Shown: positions 14,070-60,179, counted from the first letter of the stretch. The stretch is 64,000 nucleotides of DNA from Candidatus Woesearchaeota archaeon (GCA_016935095.1 JAFGRO010000021.1:916-64915); one strand, 5' to 3'. Translations and numbers: made by a program. Notes: a model not told the origin generated them from the sequence alone.

Positions 14070-15515
14070 ATGAGAATCCAATTTATCAATCCGCTTCTTG
14101 GAGGGGATTACAGTGCTTTAGACATTGCAATAACCTCTCTTGCAACGTATTTAAATGAAAGAACAAAGCACAGGGCAACAATCCTTGATTTTACATTTCA
14201 CAGGAGACACTGGAAAAAACACCTTCATAAATGGGTCAGGCAAGATAAACCACATGTAATAGGCATGTCCTCCAACACAATGTACATGCAGTATATAAAG
14301 ACCATTGCCAAAGAAATCAAAAAACATTACAGGATTCCGATAATCCTTGGAGGATACCATGCATCTCAATATCCGGATGAGACACTCAATATTAAGGAGA
14401 TTGATGCTGTCTGTATTGGCGACGGCGAGTATGCTTTAACAGAATATTTAAGTAAATCAGAGCAGAAAAAACCCCTAAAGGGCATTAAAGGCATATGGGC
14501 TAAAAACAAAAACAGAATCATTAAAAACCAGGGAGGATGCTTTATCAAAGAAATCAATGAGCTGCCAATTCCAAATTGGGATTTATGGAAAGACCTTGAC
14601 AAATATTTATATTATCTAGGGATGATTTATTTTATCGGCACCAGAGGATGCATTTACAAATGCAGCAACTGCGATGCAATCGGAATAAAAAATTCTGTCG
14701 AAGGCTCATATTACCGGATCAGGGATCCTGTTGATTATGCCCATGAAATAAAGCATCAATACGAAAAATATAAGAACAGGGGATTAAGATTAGCACAGTT
14801 ATTTGACCAGATTCCTACTATTGATTACAACTGGCTTAGAAAATTCTGTGATGAATACATCAAACTTAAGATGAATAAAAAATTAAAATACAGCATGTTT
14901 TCAAGAATTGACCATTTAAATGAAGAAAAGTTAAGAATTCTCGGTAAATCAGGCTGTGCATTGCTCAGGGCAGGCATTGAAACCGGAGATGAGTCTCTCA
15001 GAAAAAAAATTTTTAAGAAAAATATTTCAAATGCAAAAATAAAAAAGATTTTCAGGATTGCAAAGAGATACAATGTTGGATTTACAGCATTCTATATTCT
15101 CGGAAATCCAGGAGACAATAAAAAGACTATAAATAAAACTATAAAATTTGCACAAAGATTAGATGCAAACAGGAGCGCATTCTTTGTTTACAAGCCGTTT
15201 ACAAAAGAAAGTATTGAGCAGATCATTATGCATGGAGGTGAAATTGACAAGAAAAGATGGGAAAAAGCAGATAATATAATATATAAATCTGTTATAAAAT
15301 TAAAAGGTTTATCGCCAAGAGAGATTGAATTTTTACAGAAAAAAGCATATTTTGTAACGTTTGGAAAACGTTTAATTAAAATGATCAAAACACAAAAGAT
15401 AAAGTATTTTACCAGATTATTTAATTATGTAATTAAAGGACTTAAAGACGGATTAGATCCTGCTTATCTTCTGCCTTATTATCATATCTACGGATATGAC
15501 AACATTGACAATTAA
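14070..15515 (+). CDS. Cobalamin-binding radical SAM protein
   Basis: N-terminal B12-binding domain (ILGGYHAS, IGDGE); GTRGCIYKCSNC; GIETG. Confidence 0.9.
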   Translation: MRIQFINPLLGGDYSALDIAITSLATYLNERTKHRATILDFTFHRRHWKKHLHKWVRQDKPHVIGMSSNTMYMQYIKTIAKEIKKHYRIPIILGGYHASQYPDETLNIKEIDAVCIGDGEYALTEYLSKSEQKKPLKGIKGIWAKNKNRIIKNQGGCFIKEINELPIPNWDLWKDLDKYLYYLGMIYFIGTRGCIYKCSNCDAIGIKNSVEGSYYRIRDPVDYAHEIKHQYEKYKNRGLRLAQLFDQIPTIDYNWLRKFCDEYIKLKMNKKLKYSMFSRIDHLNEEKLRILGKSGCALLRAGIETGDESLRKKIFKKNISNAKIKKIFRIAKRYNVGFTAFYILGNPGDNKKTINKTIKFAQRLDANRSAFFVYKPFTKESIEQIIMHGGEIDKKRWEKADNIIYKSVIKLKGLSPREIEFLQKKAYFVTFGKRLIKMIKTQKIKYFTRLFNYVIKGLKDGLDPAYLLPYYHIYGYDNIDN

Positions 15516-15528
15516 ACATTGCAAAAAA

Positions 15529-16989: not shown

Positions 16990-17013
16990 TTTGCATTTGA
17001 TAATTAATTTTAA

Positions 17014-17057
17014 TATGTATTAAATAATTATGTATTAAATAATTATGTATTAATAAT
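17014..17057. repeat. Intergenic 15-nt tandem repeat x3 (tatgtattaaataat)
   Basis: Two exact copies (17014, 17029) and one copy with a 1-nt deletion (17044). Confidence 0.85.
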
Positions 17058-17062
17058 TCAAA

Positions 17063-18430: not shown

Positions 18431-18500
18431 TAAGAAGAATGAATATATTACAAATTTATAAATTTATAATGCTTGTCCTGTATGCACTTTACTTATAACT

Positions 18501-20210: not shown

Positions 20211-20311
20211 TATATACAGGGTATTATATAAGATTTAAATAATTTATTAAAAGAATCAACCATATTAGAACATAGATATCTGACTTAGCTTCATGAACTA
20301 AAAAAAAAATA

Positions 20312-21481: not shown

Positions 21482-21512
21482 TGTAGAAAGAGTTCTTCTA
21501 ATATCATTGACA

Positions 21513-36030: not shown

Positions 36031-38456
36031 TTGTTATTCAAAATATGTTGAGGAATATATTTTTTTCCAACAAAAAACAATAAGTAAGGATATAGTTTTT
36101 TCTCATCATTTGCTTTAAAAATAACCTTTTCTCCTGTTACCTCAATTATATCAAGAAGTTCCAAGGCTTTTATCGCATAGGGGAAATCATCAGCAATATC
36201 CTTGCCGTACATGTTTTTATAGTCTTTCCTTATTACAGAAAAATGCTCATAGGCAGAATGGGTTATAAATTTCACTTTAGCATAATGCGGGGCAAATAAA
36301 TGTATAGAATAAAAGAAATCTTTTTTATCAGGAGGAAAATTTTTACAGAACATGCTGTCTTTATTGTTTTTGTGCACGATTATATATCTAAATAAATTAT
36401 TAATACATCCTTCCCCATAAAATCCAAGGGCAAAATTTGAATACGGCTCTGTCCTGTAATTTGTGTAAACATATTTAATTTTTCTCGGAGTCTGATTTTT
36501 AAGACAAAAATCCATCGGATGCACATAACTTAATTTAGAAGGGTCATCAAAATGAGTAAAATTATGTTTGTCTGATATTACAGGGATTTCTTTAACAACA
36601 GCATCAAATAAAGGATAATAAAAATCAAGGAAATTCTTGAGCTTTCCATCATATCTCTTTTTAATATAATTATCATTGGTCTTGATAGGGTAAAGCGATA
36701 TTATGCTTGGCTTCATCTTAAGGATTTCCTCAAAAGTGTAAAGAAAATCTTTTGGAGAATCGCCTTTTAATCCAAGCAGGAGATCAACATTAAGATAGCC
36801 TATTTTTGTTTTTTTGAAATCAGAGATTGTCTTTTTTACTTTTTCAATTGTCTGATAGGGCCTGTTGTTTTTTTTAAGGACACTAGGGGATAGAGACTGC
36901 ACGCCAATAGACAGTTTATTAAAACCAAAATTATCAATAATCTTCAGTTTTTCAAATGTGGTTGTATTCGGATTGAATTCTATGCCTCTTTCTGCATATT
37001 CATCAAATTCAAAATACCTGTAAATTGAGCTGATGTATTTTTTTAACTGGTCCTCCGACATTAAGCTTGGAGTGCCTCCTCCAAGAGACAATGCCTTGAA
37101 TTTCAGTCCTTTAAACAGAGGCGAAAATAATTTCATGTCCTTGATTAAATAATCAATATAATCATCAATCTGTTTCCTGTCCTGCAAAGTTGTAGATGGA
37201 TAAACACAATATGCGCATGTTGACTGGCAGAAGGGAAAATGAATATAAAAAGCAAGAAGATCAGGCTCAAGTCCTTTTTTCACCTTATCTGTAAATATCT
37301 TCCACCCCGTATATACAAATGACTTGTTTTTTAAGCCGATATTATTCATTAAAAAAAAGCTGTAAGTATCATATATATTATTTTTATTCGGCTTATTCTT
37401 AATTGCCGTTTTAAATAATTCCAAATCTTTAATAACCTTATCATGAAATGAACCTGATTTCAATATATTATTATTTCCATGATTATTTTCAGGAAGTCTG
37501 ACTCCGGTATTATTCATTCTGGTCAGGATATCCTCTACTTCAATAAACACAGGATAAACTTCAGTTACTCCATGTACAGCAGCATAATTCGGATTTATAC
37601 CTGGGCATATATCTCTCAAAGTGCAGTGCCTGCATGCCTCTGCCTGAATATATTGCTTTTTTTCTTCAATCATTAAATTGTTTATATCCTCTGTGTCTTC
37701 TTTTGCAAAGTATGTTAAACGTTTTTCCTTTAAGCCTGAAAGCCTTACCTCTGTAGAAAATTCCTCAATTCCTGTCATATAGCACAATGGAACTCTCTCA
37801 AGCCTGAAAGTAAGATTATTCTTTTTAATATAATCAATTGTTTCCCTGATATAACGCTCTGTCTCGGCTAATCCTGGCACAATCCACTTGTTTTTTTTAG
37901 CGCGGCCGGCAGGATCTACAAAATTAAAACTAAAATGGGTTATATTAGGGAAATGTTTTCTTATAAACATAACATGGTTTTTCAGTTTTTTATAATTTAA
38001 TTCATTAATGACAATCGTCATAAAAACATTAACATCATAATCAAGGACATTTTCTAAGCCCTGTAAAATTTTCTCATAATTATCTTTAGTAGAGAGTCTG
38101 TTGCAGACTTCTTTTTCATATGAATGAAATGAAAGGTTAAATTTTACATTGCCGTATGTTTTTATTTTTTTAACAAATTCCTGAGTCAAGTTAACACAGT
38201 TTGACTGGATTGTAATTTCTATGAAATCCTGTTTTTTAGCGAAATCAATTATCTTAAAAAGATCAGGATGAATAGTTGGTTCCCCTCCTGTAATAAAGAG
38301 GTCATTTGTTCCAAGTTTCCTCAATTTAATTATTCTTCTTTTTATTTCATCTAAACTAGGGTTATCCGGAGGCCCTTCCGGCACTGAGCAGAATATGCAC
38401 TCCTGGTTGCATTCAGTGCTTATCTGCAGTCTTCCCGGTATGTGTCTGTATGTCAT
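36027..38456 (-). CDS. Double radical SAM fusion: HxsC-like domain plus HemN-like (class C) domain
   Basis: CNQECIFC/TGGEPT...VPLC...CRHCTLRDICPG, then YIHFPFCQSTCAYC, LGGGTPS, SIGVQS and NVDLLLG. Confidence 0.85.
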   Translation of the reverse strand: MTYRHIPGRLQISTECNQECIFCSVPEGPPDNPSLDEIKRRIIKLRKLGTNDLFITGGEPTIHPDLFKIIDFAKKQDFIEITIQSNCVNLTQEFVKKIKTYGNVKFNLSFHSYEKEVCNRLSTKDNYEKILQGLENVLDYDVNVFMTIVINELNYKKLKNHVMFIRKHFPNITHFSFNFVDPAGRAKKNKWIVPGLAETERYIRETIDYIKKNNLTFRLERVPLCYMTGIEEFSTEVRLSGLKEKRLTYFAKEDTEDINNLMIEEKKQYIQAEACRHCTLRDICPGINPNYAAVHGVTEVYPVFIEVEDILTRMNNTGVRLPENNHGNNNILKSGSFHDKVIKDLELFKTAIKNKPNKNNIYDTYSFFLMNNIGLKNKSFVYTGWKIFTDKVKKGLEPDLLAFYIHFPFCQSTCAYCVYPSTTLQDRKQIDDYIDYLIKDMKLFSPLFKGLKFKALSLGGGTPSLMSEDQLKKYISSIYRYFEFDEYAERGIEFNPNTTTFEKLKIIDNFGFNKLSIGVQSLSPSVLKKNNRPYQTIEKVKKTISDFKKTKIGYLNVDLLLGLKGDSPKDFLYTFEEILKMKPSIISLYPIKTNDNYIKKRYDGKLKNFLDFYYPLFDAVVKEIPVISDKHNFTHFDDPSKLSYVHPMDFCLKNQTPRKIKYVYTNYRTEPYSNFALGFYGEGCINNLFRYIIVHKNNKDSMFCKNFPPDKKDFFYSIHLFAPHYAKVKFITHSAYEHFSVIRKDYKNMYGKDIADDFPYAIKALELLDIIEVTGEKVIFKANDEKKLYPYLLFFVGKKYIPQHILNNK

Positions 38457-39316
38457 TTTAGTGGTTTTAAATTACCTATCCCGAATCTTTTTATATCATT
38501 TAAAAAAAAACCCTCACACTTATAAGATAAAGAGCAGCTCCTGCACATTGGAACCTTGACCTTGGGCTTTTCATGCTTAAAAGCATTTTTAGGCATATTA
38601 ATAAATTCATAATCTCTTCCAAAAACACAATAAGGGATATCATTAAATGAAATATTAGGGATATTATTTTTTATTTTAAACTCAATTAATTCTCTCAGGT
38701 ATTTTCCTAATTCTGCATAAGGCACACAGAAGGAGTAGCTTTTTACATCAGGATATAAGTGAGCCACATCAATGCCGAAATTTACCGGATTAAAGCTCAT
38801 TGCTAATTTTAAAATCCCTATCAAATCCTCCTTGTTTTGCTGTACCACAACTGTAAGCAATCTTAACTGGGATTTTCCTGCCTCATTTATTAATTTAATC
38901 CCTCTTATTGCCTCATCAAAACTTCCTATAGCTTGAGTTACAGAATCATGTATCTCTGCATTTGATCCATATACCGGAATCCTGAAAGAAGTAACTCCTG
39001 CATCAATTAATTCAATTATTAAGCCTGAATTTTGACTTATTCTTCCGTGGGTGCATAATAATATTTGCTTAAATCCAATTTTTTTAATATATTTTATCAT
39101 CGGCACTAATTTGTCATATTCAAGAGCATCATTTCCTGAAATATTTATATTTTCACAGCCCTGTTTTTTGTATTTAATAAGCTTTTTTGCAATAATAATT
39201 TCCTGATTTCTGATTCCTTCCGCTGTCAGCGGCCGTGTATATGTGTTCAGGCAAAAAACACACCTGTTTTTACAGCCGGGACTGATAATAATTACACCTG
39301 TTTTAGGTTCAGCCAT
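38453..39316 (-). CDS. HxsC-like radical SAM protein
   Basis: CKNRCVFC, IHDSVT..GSF, IPYC...CRSCSLSYKCEG; GGE motif replaced by SGNDA. Confidence 0.75.
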   Translation of the reverse strand: MAEPKTGVIIISPGCKNRCVFCLNTYTRPLTAEGIRNQEIIIAKKLIKYKKQGCENINISGNDALEYDKLVPMIKYIKKIGFKQILLCTHGRISQNSGLIIELIDAGVTSFRIPVYGSNAEIHDSVTQAIGSFDEAIRGIKLINEAGKSQLRLLTVVVQQNKEDLIGILKLAMSFNPVNFGIDVAHLYPDVKSYSFCVPYAELGKYLRELIEFKIKNNIPNISFNDIPYCVFGRDYEFINMPKNAFKHEKPKVKVPMCRSCSLSYKCEGFFLNDIKRFGIGNLKPLK

Positions 39317-40196
39317 TTTTCATATCCTCTTTAATAAAACAGAAGATTTCCTCATCTCCAAACTGTTCTATATAAGCTCTCCAGACACCATCGCACATTT
39401 TATTATATTCACATCCTGAACATTTTCCCGGTTTAATTTTTGACTGTGTATAATAATCCTTATTGTCTTCCGGTTGCTTCAAGTCTGAAACCCAGTTTAT
39501 AAAATCCTTTGCTATGCACAAGGGAAAATTCTCAATATATAAATTCTGAAAATCAAGCTCTTTTGCTTTTTCAAATGATTTTTTAATAAAAGGCATTACC
39601 TCTGTATAAGAGACTGCCATTGTTGATCTGCCATCTTTTACACTTTCTCCTATTGGGTTCATAAATGCCAGCTGTATATAATTAACACCTGTTTTTACCA
39701 AATGTTCAACAATAGCCGGCAAAGCCCGGTAATTAAGTCTGTGCACAACAGTATTAATATGGACTTTCTTATTGTGTTTAATAATATTTTTAATGCCTTT
39801 ATTAACCAGTTCAAAAGAACCTTTTCTCCTGGAAACTGCATCATATCCTTTTTTATCCGGCGCAAAATAAGATACCTGGAAGACATCCACACCAAGATTA
39901 ATTAATTTTTTTACAAAATTTTCATAAGACATCAATAATGCATTGGTTGCAATTGAAATCCTGCTGTATTCACATGTTTTTTTTGCATATCCTATTATTT
40001 CAAACAGCCTTTTATGAATAGTCGGTTCACCCCCTGTAATAATCATGGAATCAAATTTCTTCCTGTTTTTTTTAATTCCGGCTAAAATTTCATTAAAATC
40101 AGGATCAGGCAAATTTCTCTTTTCCTGCGTATCACCGCAAAACAGACAGTTCATATTGCACTTGTGGTTCAATTCCAAAATATAATGGCCTGTCAT
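39309..40196 (-). CDS. HxsC-like radical SAM protein
   Basis: CNMNCLFC, TGGEPT, FPLC...CSGCEYNKMCDGVW..Y...FG. Confidence 0.8.
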   Translation of the reverse strand: MTGHYILELNHKCNMNCLFCGDTQEKRNLPDPDFNEILAGIKKNRKKFDSMIITGGEPTIHKRLFEIIGYAKKTCEYSRISIATNALLMSYENFVKKLINLGVDVFQVSYFAPDKKGYDAVSRRKGSFELVNKGIKNIIKHNKKVHINTVVHRLNYRALPAIVEHLVKTGVNYIQLAFMNPIGESVKDGRSTMAVSYTEVMPFIKKSFEKAKELDFQNLYIENFPLCIAKDFINWVSDLKQPEDNKDYYTQSKIKPGKCSGCEYNKMCDGVWRAYIEQFGDEEIFCFIKEDMKNG

Positions 40197-40227
40197 TTTT
40201 TAATCTGAAAATATTATTTAATTAATG

Positions 40228-41118
40228 CTATTTATATACAGGAAAAATCTCTGTAAAAAAACCTTCCTCAAAATATTTTTTGCAGATTCCCATACAATTA
40301 TTAATAAATATACAACCAATGCATTCTTTTACTTTTGTAAAATGTCCTTTATATGATTCAACGATAAATGAATCTGAAAATTCAGGAGCAATACATACAG
40401 GAAGCTTTTCAATATAAAAGGGAATATTTAGTTTTATGCAGTATTCAAGAACATCCCTGATTTTTGCTTTCAGTTCATCAAAAGGCACTGCAAGCTTTAA
40501 ATCAATATCTTTTTTAGAGATTGGCATAAAACCTGAAAAATATATTCCTGAAACATTATAAGAGTTTAGCAAGTCTACTGTCTTAGAAAGATACTTCACA
40601 TTTGATTTTGTGATGACTATATTTACATCAAATGGTATTTTCATCTCAGAAAGATTGGCAAACCCTTTTATCGTTTGTGCAAAACTGCCTTTTGTCCTTG
40701 TAAGAGAGTCGTGAATCTCCTGGTTTGGACCGTGAATGGAGCACCTGATACAAAGATTTGGTATCTTTTTTAGGTCAGAAACAAATTTGCGATAGCATAA
40801 CATTCTTGCATTTGTTGTAAATGTAATAACCTTAAATTTGTCAGCACAATACTCAAGTATTTTAAAAAAACCCTTATGAAGTGTCGGTTCAGCCCCTCCT
40901 ATTTCAATGCCTTTTTTTTTGTCTGCATTTGCATCTACCATATTTTTAATATTCTCAAGACTCAGGGATTGGTTATTTCGGACATGGGCTGCTGAACAAA
41001 AAATACAATTGTTGTTGCACTTTTCAGTAATTCTAACCAGAAAATAATTCATGCAAGAATTATTCCTTTTTGTATAAATATTCATAACTTTTTGCTTTTC
41101 AAAAATAGTATTTTCCAT
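40228..41118 (-). CDS. HxsC-like radical SAM protein
   Basis: CNNNCIFC, GGAEPT, TNARML, LPVC...CIGCIFINNCMG. Confidence 0.8.
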   Translation of the reverse strand: MENTIFEKQKVMNIYTKRNNSCMNYFLVRITEKCNNNCIFCSAAHVRNNQSLSLENIKNMVDANADKKKGIEIGGAEPTLHKGFFKILEYCADKFKVITFTTNARMLCYRKFVSDLKKIPNLCIRCSIHGPNQEIHDSLTRTKGSFAQTIKGFANLSEMKIPFDVNIVITKSNVKYLSKTVDLLNSYNVSGIYFSGFMPISKKDIDLKLAVPFDELKAKIRDVLEYCIKLNIPFYIEKLPVCIAPEFSDSFIVESYKGHFTKVKECIGCIFINNCMGICKKYFEEGFFTEIFPVYK

Positions 41119-41120
41119 TT

Positions 41121-42041
41121 TTAATTTAAAATCTTTGTAATCTTTTTACCCTCTACCGGCCTGAATTCAAGGCTGCCGCGTTTTTCAGGATATTCTTTCC
41201 AGGGCCCTTCACAGATTAAATCATATCTGCATTTTTTACATTGAGAGAATTTCATTTTTCCCTCTTCTTTTCTTACTTTTTCCCAGTTTAATGTAACTGC
41301 ATTAATATCCCTGATCTCTCCTTGTGGGATATAAAGTTCTGAAACATATTTTTCATAGCCTTTCATCACACAATAAGGCATTGCCTCTGCCATTACTTTT
41401 AAACCTGAACTGATACCTACCTGCAATCCCTTATGAATATAGGGGGCTGCCAAGCTGACGCACGGAACCATCTGGTCAAAATTTTTATGTGCATTTGCAA
41501 TTGGATGTGGAAAGGCTAATTGAAACTGATTTACACCTAAATCAACAAGCATTTGTGCCATTTCAGGAAGATGCCTGTAGTTTGGCTTTACTACAACAGT
41601 ATTTGTTACAGTATATATGTCAAGTTTCCTTATATTTTTTATTGCCTGATATGTCTGTTTAAAACTTCCAGGGCTTCTCGTGAGATAATCATGCAATTCA
41701 GGAATATGGCCGTGTATAGCAGGCCCGAACTCATTCATGCCTGCATTAACAGCTTTTTTACTGAAATCCATATAACTGAATCTCCTGGCATTTGTCTGGA
41801 CCTGGATTGTCATAAACTGCAGTTTTTTTGCATAGGTTAGTAATTCAAAAAAATCTTTTCTTATAGAGACTTCTCCTCCTGTAAAAACAACACCTGTACA
41901 GCCTGTTTTCCTGGCTTTTTTTAAGTCATTTACTATATCTTTCGTTGGTCTGTTGCCGAATTTCTTTTTATGCGCCTGGACACAGAACCTGCAGTTGTTA
42001 TTGCAAAGAAATCCTGTCTTAATATCAACCCGCTTCCCCAT
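41121..42041 (-). CDS. HxsC-like radical SAM protein
   Basis: CNNNCRFC, FTGGEVS, QTNAR, MPYC...CKKCRYDLICEGPW..Y...G..EF.P. Confidence 0.82.
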   Translation of the reverse strand: MGKRVDIKTGFLCNNNCRFCVQAHKKKFGNRPTKDIVNDLKKARKTGCTGVVFTGGEVSIRKDFFELLTYAKKLQFMTIQVQTNARRFSYMDFSKKAVNAGMNEFGPAIHGHIPELHDYLTRSPGSFKQTYQAIKNIRKLDIYTVTNTVVVKPNYRHLPEMAQMLVDLGVNQFQLAFPHPIANAHKNFDQMVPCVSLAAPYIHKGLQVGISSGLKVMAEAMPYCVMKGYEKYVSELYIPQGEIRDINAVTLNWEKVRKEEGKMKFSQCKKCRYDLICEGPWKEYPEKRGSLEFRPVEGKKITKILN

Positions 42042-51204: not shown

Positions 51205-51597
51205 CTAGTAGCTTGCATGGCTGCCGTGGCTGCTGTGGCTACCGTGGCTGCTGTGGCTGCCGTGGCTGCTGTGGCTGCTGTGGCTGCCGTGGCTGCCGTG
51301 GCTGCCGTGGCTGCCGTGACTGCTGTGACTGCCGTGACTGGCGTGACTGGCGTGGCTGCTGTGGCTGGCGTGATGTGTGTGTGTTGCTGTGACTGTACAG
51401 GACGTGGCTGTACAACTTCCCCCCAATACAATCGTTCCTGCTTTTACCTCTTTTGCACTCAGAACAGCTGAAATTGCCGCTGTGCCAATAAAAGTTCCAA
51501 GAGTAAATAAAGAATGCTTTGATATATTCCCCTCTTCATTCATTATAAAAGAAGATATTTTTTTCTTAATTTTAGGCAACACGCTCTTTTTTGGCAA
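51205..51597 (-). CDS. hxsA: His-Xaa-Ser repeat precursor peptide (HxsA-like) with prepilin-like hydrophobic leader
   Basis: 18 consecutive H-[AGS]-S triplets, then Tyr-stop. TTG start with GAGGT SD upstream. Directly downstream of HxsB/HxsD homologs. Third-position variants (AGC/AGT, GGC/GGT, CAC/CAT) are synonymous in this frame. Confidence 0.9.
   Translation of the reverse strand: MPKKSVLPKIKKKISSFIMNEEGNISKHSLFTLGTFIGTAAISAVLSAKEVKAGTIVLGGSCTATSCTVTATHTHHASHSSHASHASHGSHSSHGSHGSHGSHGSHSSHSSHGSHSSHGSHSSHGSHASY
51211..51372 (-). repeat. 9-nt tandem repeat x18 encoding (His-Xaa-Ser)18
   Basis: Plus-strand units such as gctgccgtg, gctgctgtg and actggcgtg, counted directly; 162 nt. Confidence 0.97.
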
Positions 51598-51680: not shown

Positions 51681-53099
51681 TCACAGCTTATAAGGGGTTT
51701 TTAATTTTCCTTTTTTAAGATTTTCATTAAATTTAGTGTCAAAAATAATCTTTTCAAATAAATAATCAAACTGTCCTTTTAAAATCCTGCACCTGAAATC
51801 TGTTGCAAGCTTCGGGATCAGGTTTCCTGTGGACATATAACAGTTTACAGGGCACAAACCACAATAAGGCTGGTATGTACATGAATTGCACAAACAGGCA
51901 TCATTAACAGATGATGAAATTAAGCTACATGTTTTCTCAGAACATAGGACTTCCCTATAACTGTTTTCAAAAACAGTACCAAGCTTAAAAATTTCTTCAC
52001 CAACCATCCGTCCTTCATCACAACTGTAAATACTGCCATTAAACTGGTAAGCCAGCTGGCCAATTGCCGCGCCGCAGGGACTCATCAAATCTAAGTACAT
52101 AGGATCTTCTTTAGTCATGATTTTCAATAACATGTATAAACTCGAAACCTCGATTATATTATCTTGCAAATAAACATAATCAATTATTTTTTTCCAGAAT
52201 TCAAGATATTCCTCTGGAGAGTATGAGATTTTTTTCCATATATTTAATGCATATCCAAGATTATTAAGGAATCTGATCCATAATCTGGATAGTTTTAAAC
52301 TCTGATATGCATCAATTATTTCCATAGGGTATTTTAAAGAATTTTTAGTAGTAACCATCAATGCATTTATACCTATTTTATTTCTTTTTTTTATTGCTTT
52401 TATCCATTTTATTACATCAGGATAAGAGCTTCCCCTGTTTAATAATTTCCTGTTGAAATCATGTACTATTTTCGGCCCGTCTAATGAAGTGCATATACCA
52501 ACTTTATTATCTTCTAAAAATTTCAGGATTTCATCATTCATCAAGGTTAGGTTAGTTACAATTGAAAACCTTAAATCTTTCTTATATTCTGAATTGAGCT
52601 TTTTAGCATAATTTATAATGAATTTTACAATATCAAAATTAACCAGAGGCTCGCCTCCCTGGAATTCAATTGTAAGGGCATTTGAAGGGGCCTGAAAAAT
52701 AAATTCAACTGTTTTTTGAGCTGTTATTTTGTCCATATCATATTCTTTTTTAGATATGTGTTTAGAGGCTGAATGGCAATAAACGCATGCCATATTGCAT
52801 CTAAGTGTTACTACAATTATATGCAGTGATGTTCCCTGAAAAAGCTGCCTTTTTTTCCTTTTATAAGAGTCTACAATCATGTCAAAATTATTTTTAGTTA
52901 GAATAATTCCCTTTTCTTCCAGATTGAGATATAATTCTTCAGTTAGAGTATGCCCCATTAGTTTTGCATATTCTTCTCTTTTCAGAGCAGCCCAAGAGCC
53001 GGAATCTGTCACTATTAAAATCCTGTCCCTGATTTTTTTGGTCTTAATATTATTCAGCTTATAATCAGAAAGAATTTTTCTCCCGTTAATAAATTGCAT
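51681..53099 (-). CDS. hxsB: His-Xaa-Ser system radical SAM/SPASM maturase HxsB
   Basis: TSLHIIVVTLRCNMACVYC, IEFQGGEPL, TSLDGP..HD.NR, DLMSPCGAAIGQLAY...YSCDEGRM and C..C.YQPYCG.CP, all characteristic of HxsB. Confidence 0.9.
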   Translation of the reverse strand: MQFINGRKILSDYKLNNIKTKKIRDRILIVTDSGSWAALKREEYAKLMGHTLTEELYLNLEEKGIILTKNNFDMIVDSYKRKKRQLFQGTSLHIIVVTLRCNMACVYCHSASKHISKKEYDMDKITAQKTVEFIFQAPSNALTIEFQGGEPLVNFDIVKFIINYAKKLNSEYKKDLRFSIVTNLTLMNDEILKFLEDNKVGICTSLDGPKIVHDFNRKLLNRGSSYPDVIKWIKAIKKRNKIGINALMVTTKNSLKYPMEIIDAYQSLKLSRLWIRFLNNLGYALNIWKKISYSPEEYLEFWKKIIDYVYLQDNIIEVSSLYMLLKIMTKEDPMYLDLMSPCGAAIGQLAYQFNGSIYSCDEGRMVGEEIFKLGTVFENSYREVLCSEKTCSLISSSVNDACLCNSCTYQPYCGLCPVNCYMSTGNLIPKLATDFRCRILKGQFDYLFEKIIFDTKFNENLKKGKLKTPYKL

Positions 53100-53337
53100 T
53101 TTGCATTAATCCTAATACATAATTATAAAAGTCATAACCTAAATTATTTATATCAATTTCTTTGGATTTAGGCTTTAAATTTACTGAAATTTGGTCATTC
53201 TTGTCTCCGTCCATAAATATCCAGCAGCTTTCAGTAAAGTCCTTAGAAGCAGCTAAAATTGCAGCAAAACCATAAAACCTTGTATCAAAATTCAGTTTAA
53301 CTTCATTCTTTTTTTTGTCAATAATAAGTTTATTCAT
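53086..53337 (-). CDS. Short HxsD-like protein
   Basis: Likely start ATG 53337 overlapping the upstream stop (ATGAATAA), 83 aa. FDTRFY...AIL.A...F...C.I...LKPK...LGYDFYNYVL parallels the neighbouring HxsD. Confidence 0.65.
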   Translation of the reverse strand: MNKLIIDKKKNEVKLNFDTRFYGFAAILAASKDFTESCWIFMDGDKNDQISVNLKPKSKEIDINNLGYDFYNYVLGLMQNAIY

Positions 53338-53851
53338 TGTCATTGCATGAATCACTTTCGTCCTTTTCCTGATCTTTGCCATATTTTTCTTCCCAGGGCA
53401 CTGCAATTCCAAGAGGATCATCAATATAATCCAGACCATCACTATCTGAATCATCATCATTTGTATCAACTTTATCATCGTCTGAACCTGGCTCTTCAAA
53501 TTCATCAATCAGATTGGTTGCAAGTGCTTTGCTAACAATTGCTTCTTTCACAGGTCTTGTTTTTTCTGAATTGATACTAAAAACAGCATAGTTAAGAAGT
53601 TCATTATTAAAATCCCTTCCAAGAGATTCAATATCCTGTGGATTTTTAGGCCTGAGCTCTACAATGATTTCTTCTTCGGGATCTCCTCCTAATAAGATAT
53701 ATGCCCTGTCTAAAAAAATATAACATGCAGAATAAACAATGTCCAGTGGATAAAAAACAGGATTCACCGAAACTGCTACATAACCCTCTTCATCATGTAA
53801 CTCAAGATTGTCTATTTTTCTTGTTTTGAAAGAAGATTCTTCTGAACTCAT
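53330..53851 (-). CDS. hxsD: His-Xaa-Ser system protein HxsD-like, with acidic C-terminal tail
   Basis: YPLDIVYSACY.F.DR...FNNELLNY.......T..VKE.IV..AL; tail DDPLGIAVPWEEKYG. ATG 53851 follows a G-rich SD. Confidence 0.8.
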   Translation of the reverse strand: MSSEESSFKTRKIDNLELHDEEGYVAVSVNPVFYPLDIVYSACYIFLDRAYILLGGDPEEEIIVELRPKNPQDIESLGRDFNNELLNYAVFSINSEKTRPVKEAIVSKALATNLIDEFEEPGSDDDKVDTNDDDSDSDGLDYIDDPLGIAVPWEEKYGKDQEKDESDSCNDNE

Positions 53852-53888
53852 TTTCCCCCCCACTTGTTTCTAGTTATCAGATATAAAA

Positions 53889-55025
53889 TTAATTTATAAA
53901 GCTTTCCAATAATTGTCTGAGAAATATTAAAAAATTTCCCCTGCACAGCAAGGTGATAATTACGCCTATGAACATGGATACGGCAAAGTGAATCTTTTCA
54001 TGTATAAAGATAATATGCTCTTTAATTTTTCCTCCTGAATGCAGAGTATTTATCTTTTTTACATCTTCTTTTGTAAGGGACTTGTAATTATCAAGGATAG
54101 TCTCCTTTTTCTGGAATGCTTCAAAAATACTATTAACAAATGAAATTGAGGTTTCTTTTTTTTTAGTGTATTCTCCCTTACTTTCAATTATATCCTCTGC
54201 CAGGCACATTCCCTGCTTTAATGATTCAATATAAATTGGTTTTGAAAAAGCAATAAAAGAGAGATTTAAGACAAAATATCTCAGCAAAACAAAGAAGAGA
54301 AACAGCATTAAGAAATTTATTAAAAAAGTTAAGCTAAATATATTCTGAAAATCAAACACAAATCTGATAATCGAGAGCAAGAATCCTATTGCTGTCATAT
54401 TAATATTCAGAATATTTGTAAAGAAAAGCATTAATATCAAAATAAATATTACATTGAATACCATTGTTGACTGTATTTTCAGGAATTGTAATACTGCTGT
54501 GGTTATTGTATAAAATCCAAAAAGGAATATTGCCGAGCTGAACAAAAATTTCGGGTCTAATACAAGTATAAATTGTCTCAACAGAATCTTAAATTTTATT
54601 TTAAAGATTATTTTTACTATAAAATACAAAAAAACAGGGGTGACTGTGTTTATAAGGAGGATATAAGACGGAAAATACCCTGTATTGCCCCATTTATAAA
54701 CTGATAACGGCACAAGCGCGGCATAAGCTAAAAATAATTTTGCATCTCCGGGAGCCCAGAGATTAGAGAGCCATAAAAAAAATCCAAAAACCAATGAGAT
54801 CAGGATATTAATAAAATAGATTTTTATATAGTCTATATTTATTTCTGTCCCTTTACTCTTTAAATAGAAAATAGCAATGAGCAGGCTTAATACAGAGCTT
54901 AAAATTGCAATAACAACCCATTTGTTCCTGATTTTATTGTATTTCAGGTCCTGGTAAGAGGTTATTATTCCAAAGACAATAATTATTATAATATTTATTG
55001 ATTCAAATATTGTAAAATAATCCAT
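53889..55025 (-). CDS. A24-family prepilin/preflagellin peptidase (GxGD aspartic protease)
   Basis: SYQDLKYNKIRN (first Asp) and WAPGDAKL (GxGD-type); polytopic, with an archaeal-type C-terminal region (L..GM.LAE...LT.EDV...HFA..MFIG). Confidence 0.85.
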   Translation of the reverse strand: MDYFTIFESINIIIIIVFGIITSYQDLKYNKIRNKWVVIAILSSVLSLLIAIFYLKSKGTEINIDYIKIYFINILISLVFGFFLWLSNLWAPGDAKLFLAYAALVPLSVYKWGNTGYFPSYILLINTVTPVFLYFIVKIIFKIKFKILLRQFILVLDPKFLFSSAIFLFGFYTITTAVLQFLKIQSTMVFNVIFILILMLFFTNILNINMTAIGFLLSIIRFVFDFQNIFSLTFLINFLMLFLFFVLLRYFVLNLSFIAFSKPIYIESLKQGMCLAEDIIESKGEYTKKKETSISFVNSIFEAFQKKETILDNYKSLTKEDVKKINTLHSGGKIKEHIIFIHEKIHFAVSMFIGVIITLLCRGNFLIFLRQLLESFIN

Positions 55026-55153
55026 GTTATTCCTTCATCCTCATTTATCCTCATGCATTCTGAAAATAAATATCTTCCTTAAAAAATATCAATCAGTAAA
55101 TAATAGCTAAATAAATATAAATTTTTATATATTTCAGTCATAATATAGATGTT

Positions 55154-56859: not shown

Positions 56860-56871
56860 TTTCAGGAATAT

Positions 56872-58572
56872 TCATTCTTTTTTTACAAGAAAATCATTTA
56901 TAAGCATAAATTTTATCTCTGTGTTTAAAAATATATTAATTGCATCTTCAGGAGAACGGACAATAGGAAAACCATGTATGTTGAAACTGGTATTTAATAT
57001 AACACCAAAACCGAGTTTTTTCCTGATTTTTTTTAAAAGCCTGTAATAAAATCCATTGGTTGGCAATACAAACTGCGGCCTGCATATATCATCATATGAG
57101 ATTACAGCCTTCATTAAATTTACATGGTTTTTTTTAACCTTATATCCCATCGTCATAAAAAGATTAGTTCTGTTATCATATTCAATAAAAAGCTTTTCTG
57201 CATCCTCTTCCAGAACAGAAGGACAAAAAGGCTGGTACCATGCCCTCTTTTTAATGATCAGGTTTAATTTGTCCTTGATTTCAGGAGAGTCAGGCCTTGC
57301 TATAATGCTCCTGTTTCCCAGTGCTCTCGGACCATATTCCATTCTTCCCTGAAAAAGCAGAATGATTTCATTTTTTAAAATTAAATCTGCAATAATTTTC
57401 TCAGGATTTTTTAATTTGGCATAATTTAATTTGTATCTTTTCAAGAATTCAATGACTTCACTGTCAGAGTAACCGGTTCCAAGATAAAGGCTATTGAATT
57501 TATAAGAATCTACTTTATTTAACCTGTAATTAAGAGCAACAGCAGCTCCCAATCCAAGACCCCCGTCGCCCATATGGGGAAAGACATAGCATTTTTTTAC
57601 TTCTTCAATATTCCTGATCTTCATATTAAGGACAATATTTGCAAAAATTCCGCCTGAGAGGCAGATATTTGAGCATTTAAATTGTTTTACAGCATTTTTA
57701 ATTAATTGGATAACCCAGTATTCAAGACATTGCTGGGCAAGATAGCAAAACTGTTCTCTTGGATATAAAAAGCAAAGATTCTTCAATTTTCTATACATCA
57801 TAAGAGCAGAATATTTGCCCTTTATTTGTATGCCCCTAACTTCAAAAAAATTTTTCATAGGGTTTTTAGAAATATCTGTCGGATAGGCGTAGCCTGCCAA
57901 AGCCATGACCTTGCCCTCATCCTCCAATTCCCTGAAATTCATTATCTGAGTTATGAATTCAAAATATATACCTACGGAATCCAGTGAAGATATGCTGCTG
58001 TATCTCTTTAACCTGCCTTCAGAAAAAAAACTAACTGTGCCTGAAAGACCGTCTCCTAAACCGTCTATTGTTATGATTACTGCTTCCTTAAACCCGCTTG
58101 TTCTTGCAGCTGCCTCTGCATGACACTGATGATGATCAACAAAATAAACCTTTTTATTATTTAATCCAAGAAGCCTTAATTTTTTTTTAATTATGATACC
58201 ACTGATAAGCCTTGTTAAATAATTTGAACCAAATTGAGTAATCTTATACTTAATAATTTTCATTAAAAAATCAGTCATAGAAGGTTGTTTTTTATGCCTT
58301 CTTACAAGATAATATCTCTCTTTCAAAGCAGGAATAACTCTTGTCAATGTTTTTGTAAAGTCTGAAGTAGACACAGCAACTGCAGATATTTCCCCCTGGT
58401 TTTTTTTAACATATTTCAGAATTTCATTTATTGAATTTATCGGGAATTTTATTTCAAGCTTTCTTCTTGTATATCTTTCCTCATTTACAGCAATAATAAT
58501 TTTATCATCCTTAATTAGTGCTGCTCCTGAATCATGACCATCCCATATCCCGAGAATAGCTCTATTTTTCAT
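56872..58572 (-). CDS. NodU/CmcH-family carbamoyltransferase
   Basis: GHDSGAAL, EERYTR.K, HHQCHA, EGKVMALA, GRMEYGPRALGNRS and LNTSFN.HG motifs. Confidence 0.95.
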   Translation of the reverse strand: MKNRAILGIWDGHDSGAALIKDDKIIIAVNEERYTRRKLEIKFPINSINEILKYVKKNQGEISAVAVSTSDFTKTLTRVIPALKERYYLVRRHKKQPSMTDFLMKIIKYKITQFGSNYLTRLISGIIIKKKLRLLGLNNKKVYFVDHHQCHAEAAARTSGFKEAVIITIDGLGDGLSGTVSFFSEGRLKRYSSISSLDSVGIYFEFITQIMNFRELEDEGKVMALAGYAYPTDISKNPMKNFFEVRGIQIKGKYSALMMYRKLKNLCFLYPREQFCYLAQQCLEYWVIQLIKNAVKQFKCSNICLSGGIFANIVLNMKIRNIEEVKKCYVFPHMGDGGLGLGAAVALNYRLNKVDSYKFNSLYLGTGYSDSEVIEFLKRYKLNYAKLKNPEKIIADLILKNEIILLFQGRMEYGPRALGNRSIIARPDSPEIKDKLNLIIKKRAWYQPFCPSVLEEDAEKLFIEYDNRTNLFMTMGYKVKKNHVNLMKAVISYDDICRPQFVLPTNGFYYRLLKKIRKKLGFGVILNTSFNIHGFPIVRSPEDAINIFLNTEIKFMLINDFLVKKE

Positions 58573-60179
58573 TTTTCTCCTGGTTTTAATTTTATTTCAT
58601 AAATTCTATAATTATAGTTCGGCTCTTTATATACAAGCTCGTAATCAAATTTTTTTGTATTATTAAAAAAAGAGTTTTCAACTGATTCAAAGACAGTGTT
58701 GATATAGTATATTTTTTTTCCTGATTTCAGCTTTTCAATTGCAAGTGAATAATCATAAAAAAAATTTTTAATTCTTTTTATCTGCCCAAGATAAGACGCC
58801 TTAAAAAAAAGATAAGAATCTCCATTATAACCAGGCAATAGTGCATCCAGTTTTTCTCCTGAAATCAGGTCAAGAAAATATTTATGATATTTAGTCTGAG
58901 TCAGCAACACCTGTTTTTCTTTAAAAGAGCTATTGACAAAACAGACTGAAATTAAAGACAAAGAAATTATTAATGCAATATAAACTATTTTCTTATTTTT
59001 AATAAACAACCTGAATAAAGAGTACATCCCTGCTGATGAAAAAATTAAGTAGATAGAGGATACTGGTATTATAAATCTGAATACATCAGGATGATTATAA
59101 AAAGTATATAAAATAATATAAAACAGGAAGATGCCTAAAATTAAGAATTTTAATTTTATATTCTGCTTATCTTCTTCTTTGTTCAAAAAAATTCCCAAAA
59201 CAGAAATGAAAAAACAGGTTGTCAAAAAAATAAAAACAGGATTTTTCATGAAAAAAATCATATAAGTCATATTAAGATATGTTAAACCGAAATATGCCCC
59301 CCCTCCTGAAAAAAGCTTTTGTTTTATATAAAATAAGAAATAGAGATATAAAAGTATTATTCCCGAAAACATGGTTAATAAAGCAATTGTTTTTACATGT
59401 GAATTTAGAATCCTATCAATTGTTTTTTTATTCTTAAATTTAAAAAAGATATAAATTAAAGCTAAACTTAAAATAAGGCAGTATTCCACCCTGAAAGAAG
59501 AAACAAGCATTAATGAGACAACCAACAGCAGGTATAGATAAAGATTATCATATTTAAACCTGATTAGCAAAACCAACGCAATTAAGGATATAATCAAAAA
59601 AGTATTAGTCAATGTTGCCGGCATTATATTTGTTGAATAGATTAAATTATAGGGATAAAAAACAGACAGGATAAATGAAATCCACTTGATGATTTTACCT
59701 GAAAAAAGCAAAGAGGCAAGACAGAATACCAAAATCGCATTCATTACATACATCACCAGGACAAATATTGAAGCAGTTACATAGAATCTTTCAAAGTCAT
59801 AATCATAAAAAAATGAATATAATGTAAATATGCCTATGCCATGCGCTGGAACAGAATATTGCAGACATGAGCCCTCATCATGAGTATTGCATATTGCATT
59901 TACCTTATTTTCTATTAAATTCTGGGAGGAAAGCAAATAGGTCTGCTCATCAAAATACACAACAGGGTTAAAAGGAAAACATTTTAATGAAATAAATACC
60001 CCTAAAAAAATAAAAGGCAGCATAAACAAAATGTTCTTTAAAAGGAGTTTTTTTAATTTTGAAAATACACCTGATTTAACAAATGAATATAAGAAAAGGA
60101 TCAATAAAAAATACATCACATAATGAAACTTTTTTGCAAAAAAATCATCCAGGATATAAAAAATATCATTTACAAACAT
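58569..60179 (-). CDS. GT-C-like polytopic membrane glycosyltransferase
   Basis: YFDE in the first loop, FRVE and RFIIP motifs, many TMs; ATGA overlap with the carbamoyltransferase. Confidence 0.65.
   Translation of the reverse strand: MFVNDIFYILDDFFAKKFHYVMYFLLILFLYSFVKSGVFSKLKKLLLKNILFMLPFIFLGVFISLKCFPFNPVVYFDEQTYLLSSQNLIENKVNAICNTHDEGSCLQYSVPAHGIGIFTLYSFFYDYDFERFYVTASIFVLVMYVMNAILVFCLASLLFSGKIIKWISFILSVFYPYNLIYSTNIMPATLTNTFLIISLIALVLLIRFKYDNLYLYLLLVVSLMLVSSFRVEYCLILSLALIYIFFKFKNKKTIDRILNSHVKTIALLTMFSGIILLYLYFLFYIKQKLFSGGGAYFGLTYLNMTYMIFFMKNPVFIFLTTCFFISVLGIFLNKEEDKQNIKLKFLILGIFLFYIILYTFYNHPDVFRFIIPVSSIYLIFSSAGMYSLFRLFIKNKKIVYIALIISLSLISVCFVNSSFKEKQVLLTQTKYHKYFLDLISGEKLDALLPGYNGDSYLFFKASYLGQIKRIKNFFYDYSLAIEKLKSGKKIYYINTVFESVENSFFNNTKKFDYELVYKEPNYNYRIYEIKLKPGEK

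Follow-up and report, generated by a model that had tools for sequence, protein, structure and literature searches.

Known HXS systems and the archaeal locus

In bacterial HXS systems the precursor HxsA is processed at its N-terminus, modified by radical S-adenosylmethionine (rSAM) enzymes and exported, and the system blocks the entry of phage DNA (PMC13128918). The accessible part of that report further describes an N-terminal processing that depends on HxsB, HxsC and HxsD, a mass shift of +8 Da on a His-x-Ser (HxS) motif and the gene order HxsD-HxsB-HxsC-HxsA in 99.6% of the bacterial systems; 99.7% of the HXS systems were assigned to Pseudomonadota, and the word 'archaea' has no occurrence in the main text (PMC13128918, Nat Commun 2026). 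Other Hxs literature that bears on the present locus, as far as the accessible part of the article goes, includes PMC9062424. Here we describe positions 14070 to 60179 of a window of 64,000 nt, the whole stretch of DNA that was analysed, from Candidatus Woesearchaeota archaeon (GCA_016935095.1, JAFGRO010000021.1:916-64915; G000:C41:916-64915 in our labelling). The window covers nearly the whole of a 65.9-kb contig in an assembly of 1.77 Mb that is 95% complete. The region of interest, in which the coding share is 96%, contains an Hxs core surrounded by 11 HxsC-like domains, one HemN-like rSAM, eight rSAMs of the B12-binding type (B12-rSAMs), glycan genes and five probable glycosyltransferases (GTs) of the GT-C type. 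Our analysis suggests, with a probability of roughly 0.55, that the region belongs to an archaeal variant of the HXS maturation system, one that is typical of the family, and is a very large example of it.

Similar to the bacterial systems, as covered by the accessible part of PMC13128918, the locus encodes an HxsB of the rSAM/SPASM type, an HxsD-type protein, HxsC-type rSAMs and a His-x-Ser precursor with an N-terminal export or processing region. In contrast to the systems described there, the precursor is of the HxsA4 type, has a leader that is long and conserved and contains about 18 repeats rather than five, an A24 protease paralog and a second HxsD-like gene (HxsD') are present, and HxsC is replaced by the 11 HxsC-like domains, which are all sub-threshold and at least about 9 kb away. 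The gene order is A24-HxsD-HxsD'-HxsB-HxsA4 with the HxsC-like genes downstream of or away from the core, B12-rSAMs and glycan genes have been added, and the host is an archaeon. The HxsA4 (NF038313), HxsC4 (NF038332, 'rare') and HxsD-like (NF038315) families are already curated in NCBIfam, and HXS function was published in 2026 for Pseudomonadota. The precursor passes its model, the HxsD-like protein lies at the cut-off and HxsC4 reaches 152 against 500 bits; no A24 protease, B12-rSAM or glycan genes were seen in the NCBIfam Hxs model descriptions. Likewise, the literature searched, supplements aside, yielded nothing on archaeal Hxs systems, an A24 protease partner, a cross-domain leader family or the recruitment of B12-rSAMs and GT-C enzymes to Hxs genes. 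The archaeal version in this family has features that the bacterial system lacks, namely its own A24-type protease, large rSAM arrays and attached B12-rSAM/glycan modules.

Parts of the locus also resemble other known systems. Archaea possess class III signal peptidase paralogs with distinct substrates (FlaK, PibD and EppA), and, similar to these, the relatives carry a second A24 protease beside the housekeeping one, in which both catalytic Asp residues are kept and whose gene adjoins that of the presumed substrate. This presumed substrate differs from those of FlaK, PibD and EppA in being a putatively rSAM-modified repeat protein, for which no match to a Pfam pilin or class III model was obtained. 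Clusters for ribosomally synthesized and post-translationally modified peptides (RiPPs) that use several rSAMs and class B methyltransferases share with the locus a single leader-bearing precursor, several rSAM/SPASM enzymes and B12-rSAMs, and RiPP C-methyltransferase models (TIGR03975, ApyD) are among the best matches, all below cut-off. Unlike in such clusters, the product keeps a signal-like hydrophobic segment, and GT-C and dolichyl-phosphate (Dol-P)-sugar genes are atypical there. The AglJ-like GT2, the Agl23/PMT_2-like GT-C and the other membrane proteins resembling GT-C enzymes recall the archaeal Agl genes; in contrast to these, the AglJ and Agl23 matches are below cut-off, no AglB was identified in the locus with Pfam or NCBIfam, and the genes are interleaved with rSAMs.

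A conserved Hxs core with its own A24-type protease

Open reading frames (ORFs) of the window were annotated with Pfam and NCBIfam profiles at their curated cut-offs. They were compared with 60 genomes of the same order (61 with G000; the relatives are labelled G001 and so on) and with 79 loci (L labels), each reaching up to 10 kb to either side of HxsB, which were collected with a profile of 19 HxsB sequences and annotated by BLAST against the window proteins. Archaeal titles are carried by 23 of these loci and bacterial titles by 56; the loci partly overlap with the G-labelled relatives, and kin among them are not independent.

The core genes lie on the minus strand, from 55025 to 51205, in the order A24-like, HxsD, HxsD', HxsB and HxsA4, neighbouring genes either overlapping by 14 nt or being separated by 25 or 83 nt. 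HxsB was also recovered at 428.8 bits by a six-frame search, and HxsD' scored 41.0 bits with NF038315, equal to the cut-off of 41, its homologs in the relatives being 64-112 aa long. Both HxsD and HxsD' occupy a conserved position upstream of HxsB, and the order A24-HxsD-(HxsD')-HxsB was found in nine of the ten relatives' loci examined (eight by BLAST and that of G047 by PF01478). HxsB and the A24-like paralog each occur in 17 of the 60 relatives, and together in 14. Within 10 kb of HxsB, HxsD was found in 69 of the 79 loci (21/23 archaeal-titled and 48/56 bacterial) and an A24-like gene in 27 (20/23 and 7/56, respectively).

The A24-like protein scored 34.2 bits with Arc_PepC (cut-off 23.4), while the PF01478 score (cut-off 26.5) was 21.8 bits for the protein and 30.4 bits when six-frame translations were searched. 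As in A24 enzymes, the protein is polytopic with two catalytic Asp residues, the second of which stands in a GxGD-like motif; both D26 and D94 (window motif AGDAKLF, consensus AGDxKLF) were invariant in 21 of 21 aligned sequences. Most relatives possess, in addition, an A24 gene that codes for about 290 aa and scores strongly with PF01478, while the Hxs-linked copies are 355-387 aa long and score weakly. Since this shorter, strong-scoring copy exists separately in most relatives, the Hxs-linked A24 protein is, judged by its sequence, a paralog in its own right rather than the housekeeping prepilin peptidase. Complex prediction for the A24 protein with HxsA4 residues 1-62 gave a score of 0.60, compared to 0.03 for the best of three controls, with runs agreeing in at least 87% of the contacts and a partner pLDDT of at least 67. 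Of 157 solved complexes 116 reached the mark applied, as did 2 of 215 mismatched pairs, a calibration that is rough given our own alignments, and a score of 0.60 or less at this mark was obtained for only 18 of the 157 solved complexes and for both passing mismatches. These predictions lend weak support to a contact between HxsA4 and the A24 paralog, the candidate protease for its leader. The first-pass annotation of the window had missed this dedicated paralog, and also that a role of bacterial HXS against phages has been published. The processing of an HxsA-type effector can now be tested with a named candidate protease, as can HxsC-type chemistry on HxS repeats.

In the precursor HxsA4 a conserved leader is followed by about 19 hydrophobic residues, a variable linker and a His-x-Ser core. 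In 16 aligned precursors the leader follows the consensus LPKIKKKIxxFLxxEEGKISK with E21, G23 and K27 invariant, and the motif THxHHxSHSSY is conserved in the core, which has the form (A)THxHHxSH...SY. The window precursor contains 18 H-x-S matches, and at the DNA level its repeats correspond to a 9-nt unit that is repeated in tandem 17.2 times (88% matches) at 51218-51372. Relatives within the family have 9 to 19 repeats, and more distant loci keep the leader together with short or different cores. No match to the classical HxsA model at E <=0.001 and no peptidoglycan-binding domain were found with Pfam and NCBIfam. A regular expression for the leader motif, which gives a few false positives, detected an ORF in 46 of the 79 loci (18/23 archaeal-titled, 28/56 bacterial). 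In the whole genome HxsA4 is the sole ORF with this motif, in agreement with the earlier statement that only one precursor is visible. Two tandem HxsA4-type genes with near-identical leaders and different repeat tails, followed by two B12-rSAMs, were seen at L062:11511-12335, and the precursor ORF of the Myxococcales-titled locus L090 has a masked run (X) inside an HGS repeat.

Arrays of HxsC-like enzymes in archaeal and bacterial loci

Pfam and NCBIfam identified 17 rSAM ORFs within 14070-56859. These genes hold 22 of the 45 PF04055 matches of the genome in a locus that makes up 2.6% of its 1.77 Mb, which raises the question of ultra-small episymbiotic archaea investing such a share of the genome, and half of their rSAM domains, in envelope defence or host contact. 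By regular expression 21 CX3CX2C motifs were counted, 20 of which open an rSAM domain; the 21st lies at residue 870 in the 1168-aa protein, away from the start of any rSAM domain. These results agree with the 17 rSAM genes and 20 intact cluster motifs claimed in the first-pass annotation, and its assignment of two multi-rSAM fusions (1168 and 899 aa), HxsB (429 bits) and one further rSAM (345 aa) was likewise borne out. The same is true for its eight B12-type rSAMs, encoded by the genes starting at 14070, 15529, 17063, 21507, 24809, 28622, 30115 and 32196. All eight have CX3CX2C and six exceed the Pfam cut-offs for both B12-binding and Radical_SAM, while the gene at 32196 reaches 28.0 against a B12-binding cut-off of 32.1, and that at 21507, with no Pfam B12 match, can be aligned to B12-rSAM families and to its paralogs along its entire length. 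None of the eight reached any NCBIfam functional equivalog cut-off. Identities of 20-35%, except for pairs at 51% and 36%, indicate that the paralogs are old.

The 11 HxsC-like domains are distributed over four stand-alone genes, the 809-aa protein (one), the 1168-aa and 899-aa proteins (two each) and two truncated copies. HxsC or HxsC4 is the top-scoring family for all four stand-alone genes, and it is HxsC4 for those at 41121-42041 and 38453-39316; pairwise identities among the four are 22-33%, and the intergenic gaps range from -8 to 31 nt. In the 809-aa fusion, HxsC matched residues 12-228 with 109 bits and a HemN/HemW/STM4012-type domain lies at 392-603, with CX3CX2C at 16 and 410. The five tandem HxsC-like genes recognised earlier thus correspond to the four stand-alone genes plus this HxsC/HemN fusion, although none of them reaches the HxsC or HxsC4 cut-off. 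The truncated copies are half-domains without CX3CX2C in the 669- and 675-aa proteins. Residues 549-660 of the 669-aa protein, which has a single CX3CX2C, align with residues 28-140 of an HxsC4-like protein at 40% identity.

Arrays of this kind were also found in other lineages. At least one HxsC-like gene is present within 10 kb of HxsB in 53 of the 79 loci (10/23 archaeal-titled and 43/56 bacterial) and at least four in 18 of them. Two loci from the candidate phyla radiation (CPR), L092 and L095, have about seven HxsC-like genes each, with an A24-like gene in each; when HemN-like genes are included, L092 has 8 downstream of HxsB, or 12 with four more upstream, and L095 has 7. Moreover, 12 HxsC4-like matches were obtained in G002, a genome of the same genus, and multi-HxsC fusions occur elsewhere in the family, such as a 1082-aa frame in G006:C116. 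HxsC4-like matches with E <1e-25 were restricted to HxsB-positive genomes (10/10, including G000). HxsC-like arrays beside HxsD-HxsB are thus common in loci from DPANN archaea, CPR and other bacteria. As far as these sequences indicate, having several rSAMs arrayed around HxsD-HxsB is therefore typical of this branch of the family and not singular, with the window array among the largest seen. The earlier view of an exceptionally large tailoring investment around one precursor therefore holds for its size, but the array is not unique. Likewise, the host had been described as a probably genome-reduced archaeon. It is DPANN-like, its closest loci being Woesearchaeota- or Nanoarchaeota-titled, but its genome is large for the order, whose sampled members span 0.6-2.3 Mb.

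The titles of the 79 loci name Woesearchaeota, Nanoarchaeota, other metagenome-assembled genomes of DPANN archaea, CPR groups, Elusimicrobiota, Omnitrophota, Myxococcota and Bdellovibrio. A related precursor with an HxsB/HxsD core thus extends to DPANN archaea, CPR bacteria and other phyla, compared to the near-confinement to Pseudomonadota in the accessible part of PMC13128918.

B12-rSAM and glycan genes: part of the Hxs locus or a neighbour

The B12-rSAM and glycan genes are physically mixed with the HxsC-like genes. A B12-rSAM is fused to an HxsC-like half-domain twice, a further fusion has the order GT28C-rSAM-rSAM-GT2, and the GT-C-like gene 34231-36030 overlaps by 4 nt the HxsC-like/HemN fusion gene at the end of a six-gene string. 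Overlaps of the same length join the GT2 gene with an rSAM gene and a GT-C-like gene with the carbamoyltransferase gene, and three further GT-C-like or transmembrane (TM) genes stand in strings with B12-rSAMs. The left-hand order of the window recurs on G007:C16 from another genus, where pilins, Cys-rich proteins and an HxsC/HemN fusion (40%) are followed by B12-rSAM 3 (42%), B12-rSAM 1 (about 56-57%), an HxsC4-like gene (60%) and a 680-aa B12-rSAM, and then by a DUF362-rSAM fusion, an rSAM/SPASM gene, DegT and more B12-rSAMs. Clear orthologs of B12-rSAM 1 were found in two relatives only, at 70% in G002:C99 and at about 57% in the aforementioned contig of G007, both among HxsC-like genes, and a 42% ortholog of B12-rSAM 6 adjoins the Hxs core in G006:C32. 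In L058 HxsB is separated from HxsA4 by genes for a PMT_2-like GT-C, DegT and an AglJ-like GT2. Carbamoyltransferase genes adjoin the core in G006 as well as in the Elusimicrobiota loci L077 and L082, and the 589-aa GT-C-like family is present in only two of the 61 genomes, G000 and G001, in the latter within the Hxs locus. In G001, G007 and L065 the B12-rSAM genes are interspersed with HxsC-like ones.

The best-surviving alternative is that an Hxs system, consisting of the core and the HxsC-like arrays, merely lies beside an independent B12-rSAM/DegT/GT2/GT-C/carbamoyltransferase pathway for an envelope glycan (on the S-layer, pilins or another acceptor), both lying in a hypervariable stretch bounded by the pilus locus on one side and the tRNA/DedA flank on the other. 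We regard this as possible but somewhat doubtful. A number of observations agree with it and weigh against our reading of a single maturation system. G003, a genome without HxsB, the A24-like paralog or an HxsC4-like match, has a cluster of DegT, three B12-rSAMs and GT2 and in addition a second pair of B12-rSAM and GT2, and B12-rSAM paralogs (26-34% identity) occur in 28 of the 61 genomes regardless of Hxs, many of them without HxsB. Richness in rSAMs is general in the order, with at least 48 scored domain candidates in some genomes, including G012, in which no HxsB was found. In the wider set a B12-rSAM lies within 10 kb of HxsB in 17 of the 79 loci (9/23 archaeal-titled, 8/56 bacterial), and glycan-type genes lie within this distance in 4, or in 8 when matches to the 1168-aa fusion are counted. 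For this four-domain GT-rSAM fusion no full-length homolog was found in the 60 relatives. Gene content differs strongly even within the genus, and HxsB is only 55-65% identical. Since the A24 gene directly abuts DedA in G007 and G011, the block 55154-60179 (GT2-rSAM-carbamoyltransferase-GT-C) looks as if it had been inserted beside the tRNA gene, and the IS200 fragment in the middle of the cluster (44052-44390), between the PMT_2 gene and the 1168-aa fusion, is compatible with rearrangement.

Other points concern the Hxs genes themselves. No HxsC-like gene reaches a cut-off (HxsC at best 119.8 against 267.9, HxsC4 at best 152.3 against 500), and HxsD falls just short of its own, which leaves family membership incomplete. 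In several relatives the HxsC-like arrays are on contigs other than that of HxsB, and contiguity is assumed there. A PF01478 search of the G000 assembly found no housekeeping A24 gene, its sole match being the Hxs-linked paralog, while both same-genus relatives carry a housekeeping-type copy. The gene may lie in the missing 5% of the genome or may truly have been lost, and because it was not found in the assembly, one A24 enzyme might serve both HxsA4 and the pilins in G000. In addition, no Pfam class III signal or pilin model matched any of 11 HxsA4-family precursors at E values up to 10, and many precursors, as judged by eye, have an AxA-like motif at the end of the hydrophobic segment, where an ordinary signal peptidase could act.

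Against a mere juxtaposition stand the fusions of B12-rSAM and of GT domains with HxsC-like rSAM domains, the 4-nt overlap of a GT-C-like gene with the HxsC-like operon, the restriction of B12-rSAM 1 orthologs to HxsC-like surroundings, the glycan genes between HxsB and the precursor in L058 and the interleaving seen in three other loci. Taken together, the comparisons tip slightly towards a separable B12-rSAM/glycan module, widespread in the order, that this family has recruited into its Hxs locus; the link of the B12-rSAM/GT-C block to Hxs is supported but not proven. The earlier suggestion that peptide modification is combined with the building of a glycan, which might be attached to the HxS serines, the pilins or lipids, consequently stands as regards the mixing of the genes, while their integration is only supported. 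An independent occurrence of B12-rSAM/GT-C and Hxs blocks in relatives had been named as the observation that would point to chance juxtaposition, and this was encountered in part, in G003 and in the paralogs spread over 28 genomes.

Membrane proteins and glycan enzymes

One of the five GT-C-like proteins (42268-43746) exceeds the Pfam PMT_2 cut-off. For the 589-aa protein, ESM Atlas features led to RgtA-D/PMT_2 clusters with a score of 0.99, and its AlphaFold2 model, which is mediocre (pLDDT 60.6) and was used for the ranking of fold matches only, gave exclusively GT-C proteins as its top 23 Foldseek matches in the PDB (E from 5e-4, TM-score 0.21-0.39), these being ALG12, ALG9, PglB, DPY19, STT3, ArnT and AglB. 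The 536-aa protein was likewise assigned to PMT_2 clusters by ESM Atlas features (0.99), with no Pfam match. Relatives of these proteins are rare. A full HMMER search among 1.84 billion representative proteins returned only 3 distant homologs of the 569-aa protein, word-index searches with three of the membrane proteins gave 3, 1 and 1 matches including the query itself, and hardly any sequence relatives were found for the 589-aa protein and its 36% paralog. The sequence and model comparisons therefore make five GT-C-like proteins probable, as had been proposed earlier, with the assignment firmly shown for only one of them and the other four resting on weaker evidence. The GT2, carbamoyltransferase and DegT genes listed in the first-pass annotation were each confirmed by Pfam matches, while its SGNH-like protein has only a weak Pfam match (E 0.016) together with GxND and DxxH blocks recognised by eye. 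No gene of the locus reached the AglJ or Agl23 cut-off. The locus represents a source of divergent B12-rSAM enzymes and of near-orphan GT-C-like proteins.

Proposed maturation and possible functions

GT-C enzymes use polyprenyl-phosphate sugar donors at the outer face of the membrane, and such donors are made by AglJ-type GT2 enzymes. DegT enzymes aminate keto-sugars, NodU/CmcH enzymes O-carbamoylate, and class B rSAMs mostly methylate unactivated carbons. If the locus forms one maturation system, as we suggest, HxsB together with HxsD and HxsD' would recognise the leader in the cytoplasm and modify the HxS core, and the HxsC-like, HemN-like and B12-rSAM paralogs would add further radical changes, such as methylations and cross-links, on the repeats or on sugars. 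At the membrane the dedicated A24 protease would cut off the leader, and the product would be exported or anchored through its hydrophobic helix. Outside the cell, GT-C enzymes with polyprenyl-phosphate sugars might glycosylate the Ser-rich product or neighbouring surface proteins, using sugars that the GT2 would provide and that DegT and the carbamoyltransferase would modify. The product could thereby become a layer of the cell envelope that interferes with virus entry, similar to bacterial HXS. It is by analogy that we infer the chemical steps, the glycan acceptor and the antiviral role. Repeat number and tailoring set vary quickly between relatives.

The same architecture might instead yield a surface peptide of an episymbiont that binds metal or contacts the host and has no antiviral role. 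A His at every third residue, in a core with about 18 HxS repeats, would chelate Ni, Zn or Cu, or the peptide could mediate attachment to the host cell. Many members of the DPANN archaea, CPR bacteria, Omnitrophota, Elusimicrobiota, Myxococcota and Bdellovibrio, in whose records this type of precursor and HxsB was found, are episymbiotic or predatory, and PilB-like ATPase genes lie within 10 kb of HxsB, upstream of HxsD-HxsB, in 4 of the 79 loci. However, Pfam and NCBIfam identified no metal transporter or regulator in the locus, and antiphage defence is the sole experimental result for any HXS in the accessible part of the literature (PMC13128918), so that we consider this alternative unlikely.

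Slightly less likely still is a more specific form of the proposed system, in which HxsA4 is pilin-like. After cleavage of its leader by the A24 enzyme, the helix would anchor the protein in the membrane or join an assembly resembling type IV filaments, and the tail would be cross-linked, methylated and O-glycosylated with aminated or carbamoylated sugars, resulting in a fast-evolving brush on DPANN cells that blocks virus entry or contacts the host. Slippage of the 9-nt repeat and swapping of modules would supply the variation, and the CPR and other bacterial relatives that lack the A24 gene may build something similar.

Finally, it seems very improbable that the B12-rSAMs and membrane proteins modify lipids or polyprenyl carriers, for example by isoprenoid methylation or cyclisation: the best NCBIfam matches of several B12-rSAMs include HpnJ, HpnR and 'lipid biosynthesis B12-binding/radical SAM protein', the HxsC-like proteins have Tes-type matches and some B12-rSAMs are paired with multi-TM proteins of no assigned family, but these matches are far under the cut-offs (HpnJ 172 against 577.6 bits), RiPP C-methyltransferase, BchE and ApyD score equally well, the membrane proteins resemble GT-C glycosyltransferases, and DegT, GT2 and the carbamoyltransferase point to sugars.

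Gene content and flanks of the locus

The genes of the region are listed in Table 1. The 899-aa fusion gene lies directly downstream of HxsA4 on the same strand, and the IS200/IS605 Y1 fragment covers positions 8-88 of the 121 positions of its profile. A chimeric contig was rejected as an explanation of the gene content, because G007:C16 keeps the same gene order with 40-60% orthologs.

Table 1. Genes and other features between 14070 and 60433 of the window, with the evidence for each assignment
Feature	Position	Strand	Evidence
B12-rSAM 1, 481 aa	14070..15515	+	Pfam B12-binding 57.3 bits, Radical_SAM 51.9 bits
B12-rSAM 2, 486 aa	15529..16989	-	Pfam B12-binding and Radical_SAM; CX3CX2C at residue 198
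B12-rSAM 3, 455 aa	17063..18430	-	Pfam B12-binding and Radical_SAM
Membrane protein, ~15 TM, possibly GT-C, 569 aa	18501..20210	-	Hydropathy; PMT_2 E 0.014
SGNH-like protein, N-terminal TM segment, 389 aa	20312..21481	+	Lipase_GDSL_2 weak; GxND, DxxH blocks by eye
rSAM, B12 type by full-length similarity, 456 aa	21507..22877	+	Pfam Radical_SAM only; B12-rSAM families and paralogs
6-TM membrane protein, no family, 250 aa	22874..23626	+	Overlaps neighbouring genes by 4 and 25 nt
DegT/DnrJ/EryC1-type sugar aminotransferase, 401 aa	23602..24807	+	PF01041 101.5 bits
B12-rSAM 5, 500 aa	24809..26311	+	Pfam
Small 1-TM protein, no family, 134 aa	26339..26743	-	Hydropathy, Pfam
GT-C-like membrane protein, ~15 TM, 589 aa	26842..28611	-	ESM Atlas features, Foldseek
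B12-rSAM 6, 468 aa	28622..30028	-	Pfam
B12-rSAM with C-terminal HxsC-like half-domain, 669 aa	30115..32124	+	Two Radical_SAM stretches (Pfam)
Paralog of the 669-aa gene, 675 aa, 51% identity	32196..34223	+	Pfam, pairwise alignment
GT-C-like membrane protein, 599 aa	34231..36030	-	36% paralog of 26842-28611
HxsC-like + HemN-like double rSAM fusion, 809 aa	36027..38456	-	Two Radical_SAM domains
Four tandem HxsC-like rSAM genes (287, 295, 296, 306 aa)	38453..42041	-	NCBIfam HxsC/HxsC4 best, below cut-off
GT-C glycosyltransferase, PMT_2/Agl23-like, 492 aa	42268..43746	-	PMT_2 33.3 bits vs 26.1; weak Agl23
IS200/IS605-type Y1 transposase fragment, 112 aa	44052..44390	-	Pfam Y1_Tnp; NF033573 55 bits, equal to cut-off
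GT28C + rSAM (HxsC-like) + rSAM + GT2 fusion, 1168 aa	44541..48047	+	Pfam, NCBIfam
DUF362 + Fer4 + HxsC-like rSAM + rSAM/SPASM fusion, 899 aa	48271..50970	-	Pfam, NCBIfam
HxsA4 precursor	51205..51597	-	NF038313 66.1 bits vs cut-off 55
HxsB, rSAM/SPASM maturase, 472 aa	51681..53099	-	TIGR03978 429 bits vs 370
HxsD-related small protein (HxsD'), ~85 aa, start inferred from homolog lengths	53086..53343	-	NF038315
HxsD, 177 aa	53330..53863	-	TIGR03976 49.6 bits vs cut-off 50
Hxs-linked A24-family aspartyl protease paralog, 378 aa, ~13 TM	53889..55025	-	Arc_PepC, PF01478
AglJ-like GT2, polyprenyl-phosphate hexose synthase type, 223 aa	55154..55825	+	Pfam GT2 93 bits; AglJ 146.9 vs 325
rSAM/SPASM protein, 345 aa	55822..56859	+	Pfam, NCBIfam; overlaps GT2 gene by 4 nt
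NodU/CmcH-type carbamoyltransferase, 566 aa	56872..58572	-	Carbam_trans_C 180.5 bits, Carbam_trans_N 119.9 bits
GT-C-like membrane protein, 536 aa	58569..60179	-	ESM Atlas features; overlaps carbamoyltransferase gene by 4 nt
tRNA, 122 nt, right edge of the block	60312..60433	+	Rfam RF00005 56.5 bits

The tRNA at 60312-60433, which separates the last GT-C-like gene from the conserved DedA/AI-2E flank, was found by Rfam and missed by ARAGORN, and since it is also 122 nt long, it probably contains an intron. It could represent an insertion hotspot for the block 55154-60179. To the left of the cluster a type IV pilus-like locus (3147-13928, minus strand) encodes a PilC-like and a PilB-like protein and five small proteins, at least two of which have pilin-type N-termini (KKGVSPLIA...), and beside it stands a gene for a 1418-aa secreted protein with 84 cysteines. 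A block of pilins and Cys-rich proteins precedes the rSAM cluster also in G007:C16. At the other end of the window an open-ended ORF (62509-63999, plus strand), for which no family was found, has 41 Cys in 497 aa, and one segment of it is 38% identical to part of the 1418-aa Cys-rich protein. Within 88-2499 a 457-aa protein matches the PADLOC candidate family PD-T4-1 (E 4.5e-12) and its gene adjoins a NERD-domain nuclease-like gene, so that defence genes may be present at the left end of the contig. For the rSAM cluster PADLOC v2.0 was not taken as evidence of defence, its result being a generic pVip (viperin-type) rSAM similarity only, with no Hxs model included in it. A scan for sigma-70 promoters and terminators was set aside, as it is not applicable to archaea and gave no meaningful excess over shuffles.

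Dense runs of rSAMs were also seen in genomes in which no HxsB was found (G012:C3, G032:C19, G013:C22 and G057:C22/C112). Five B12-rSAM paralogs lie within 20 kb on G032:C19, and G012 has 45 PF04055 matches, many of them on C3. Because this last contig ends inside an A24-like gene, an Hxs core may follow just past its end.

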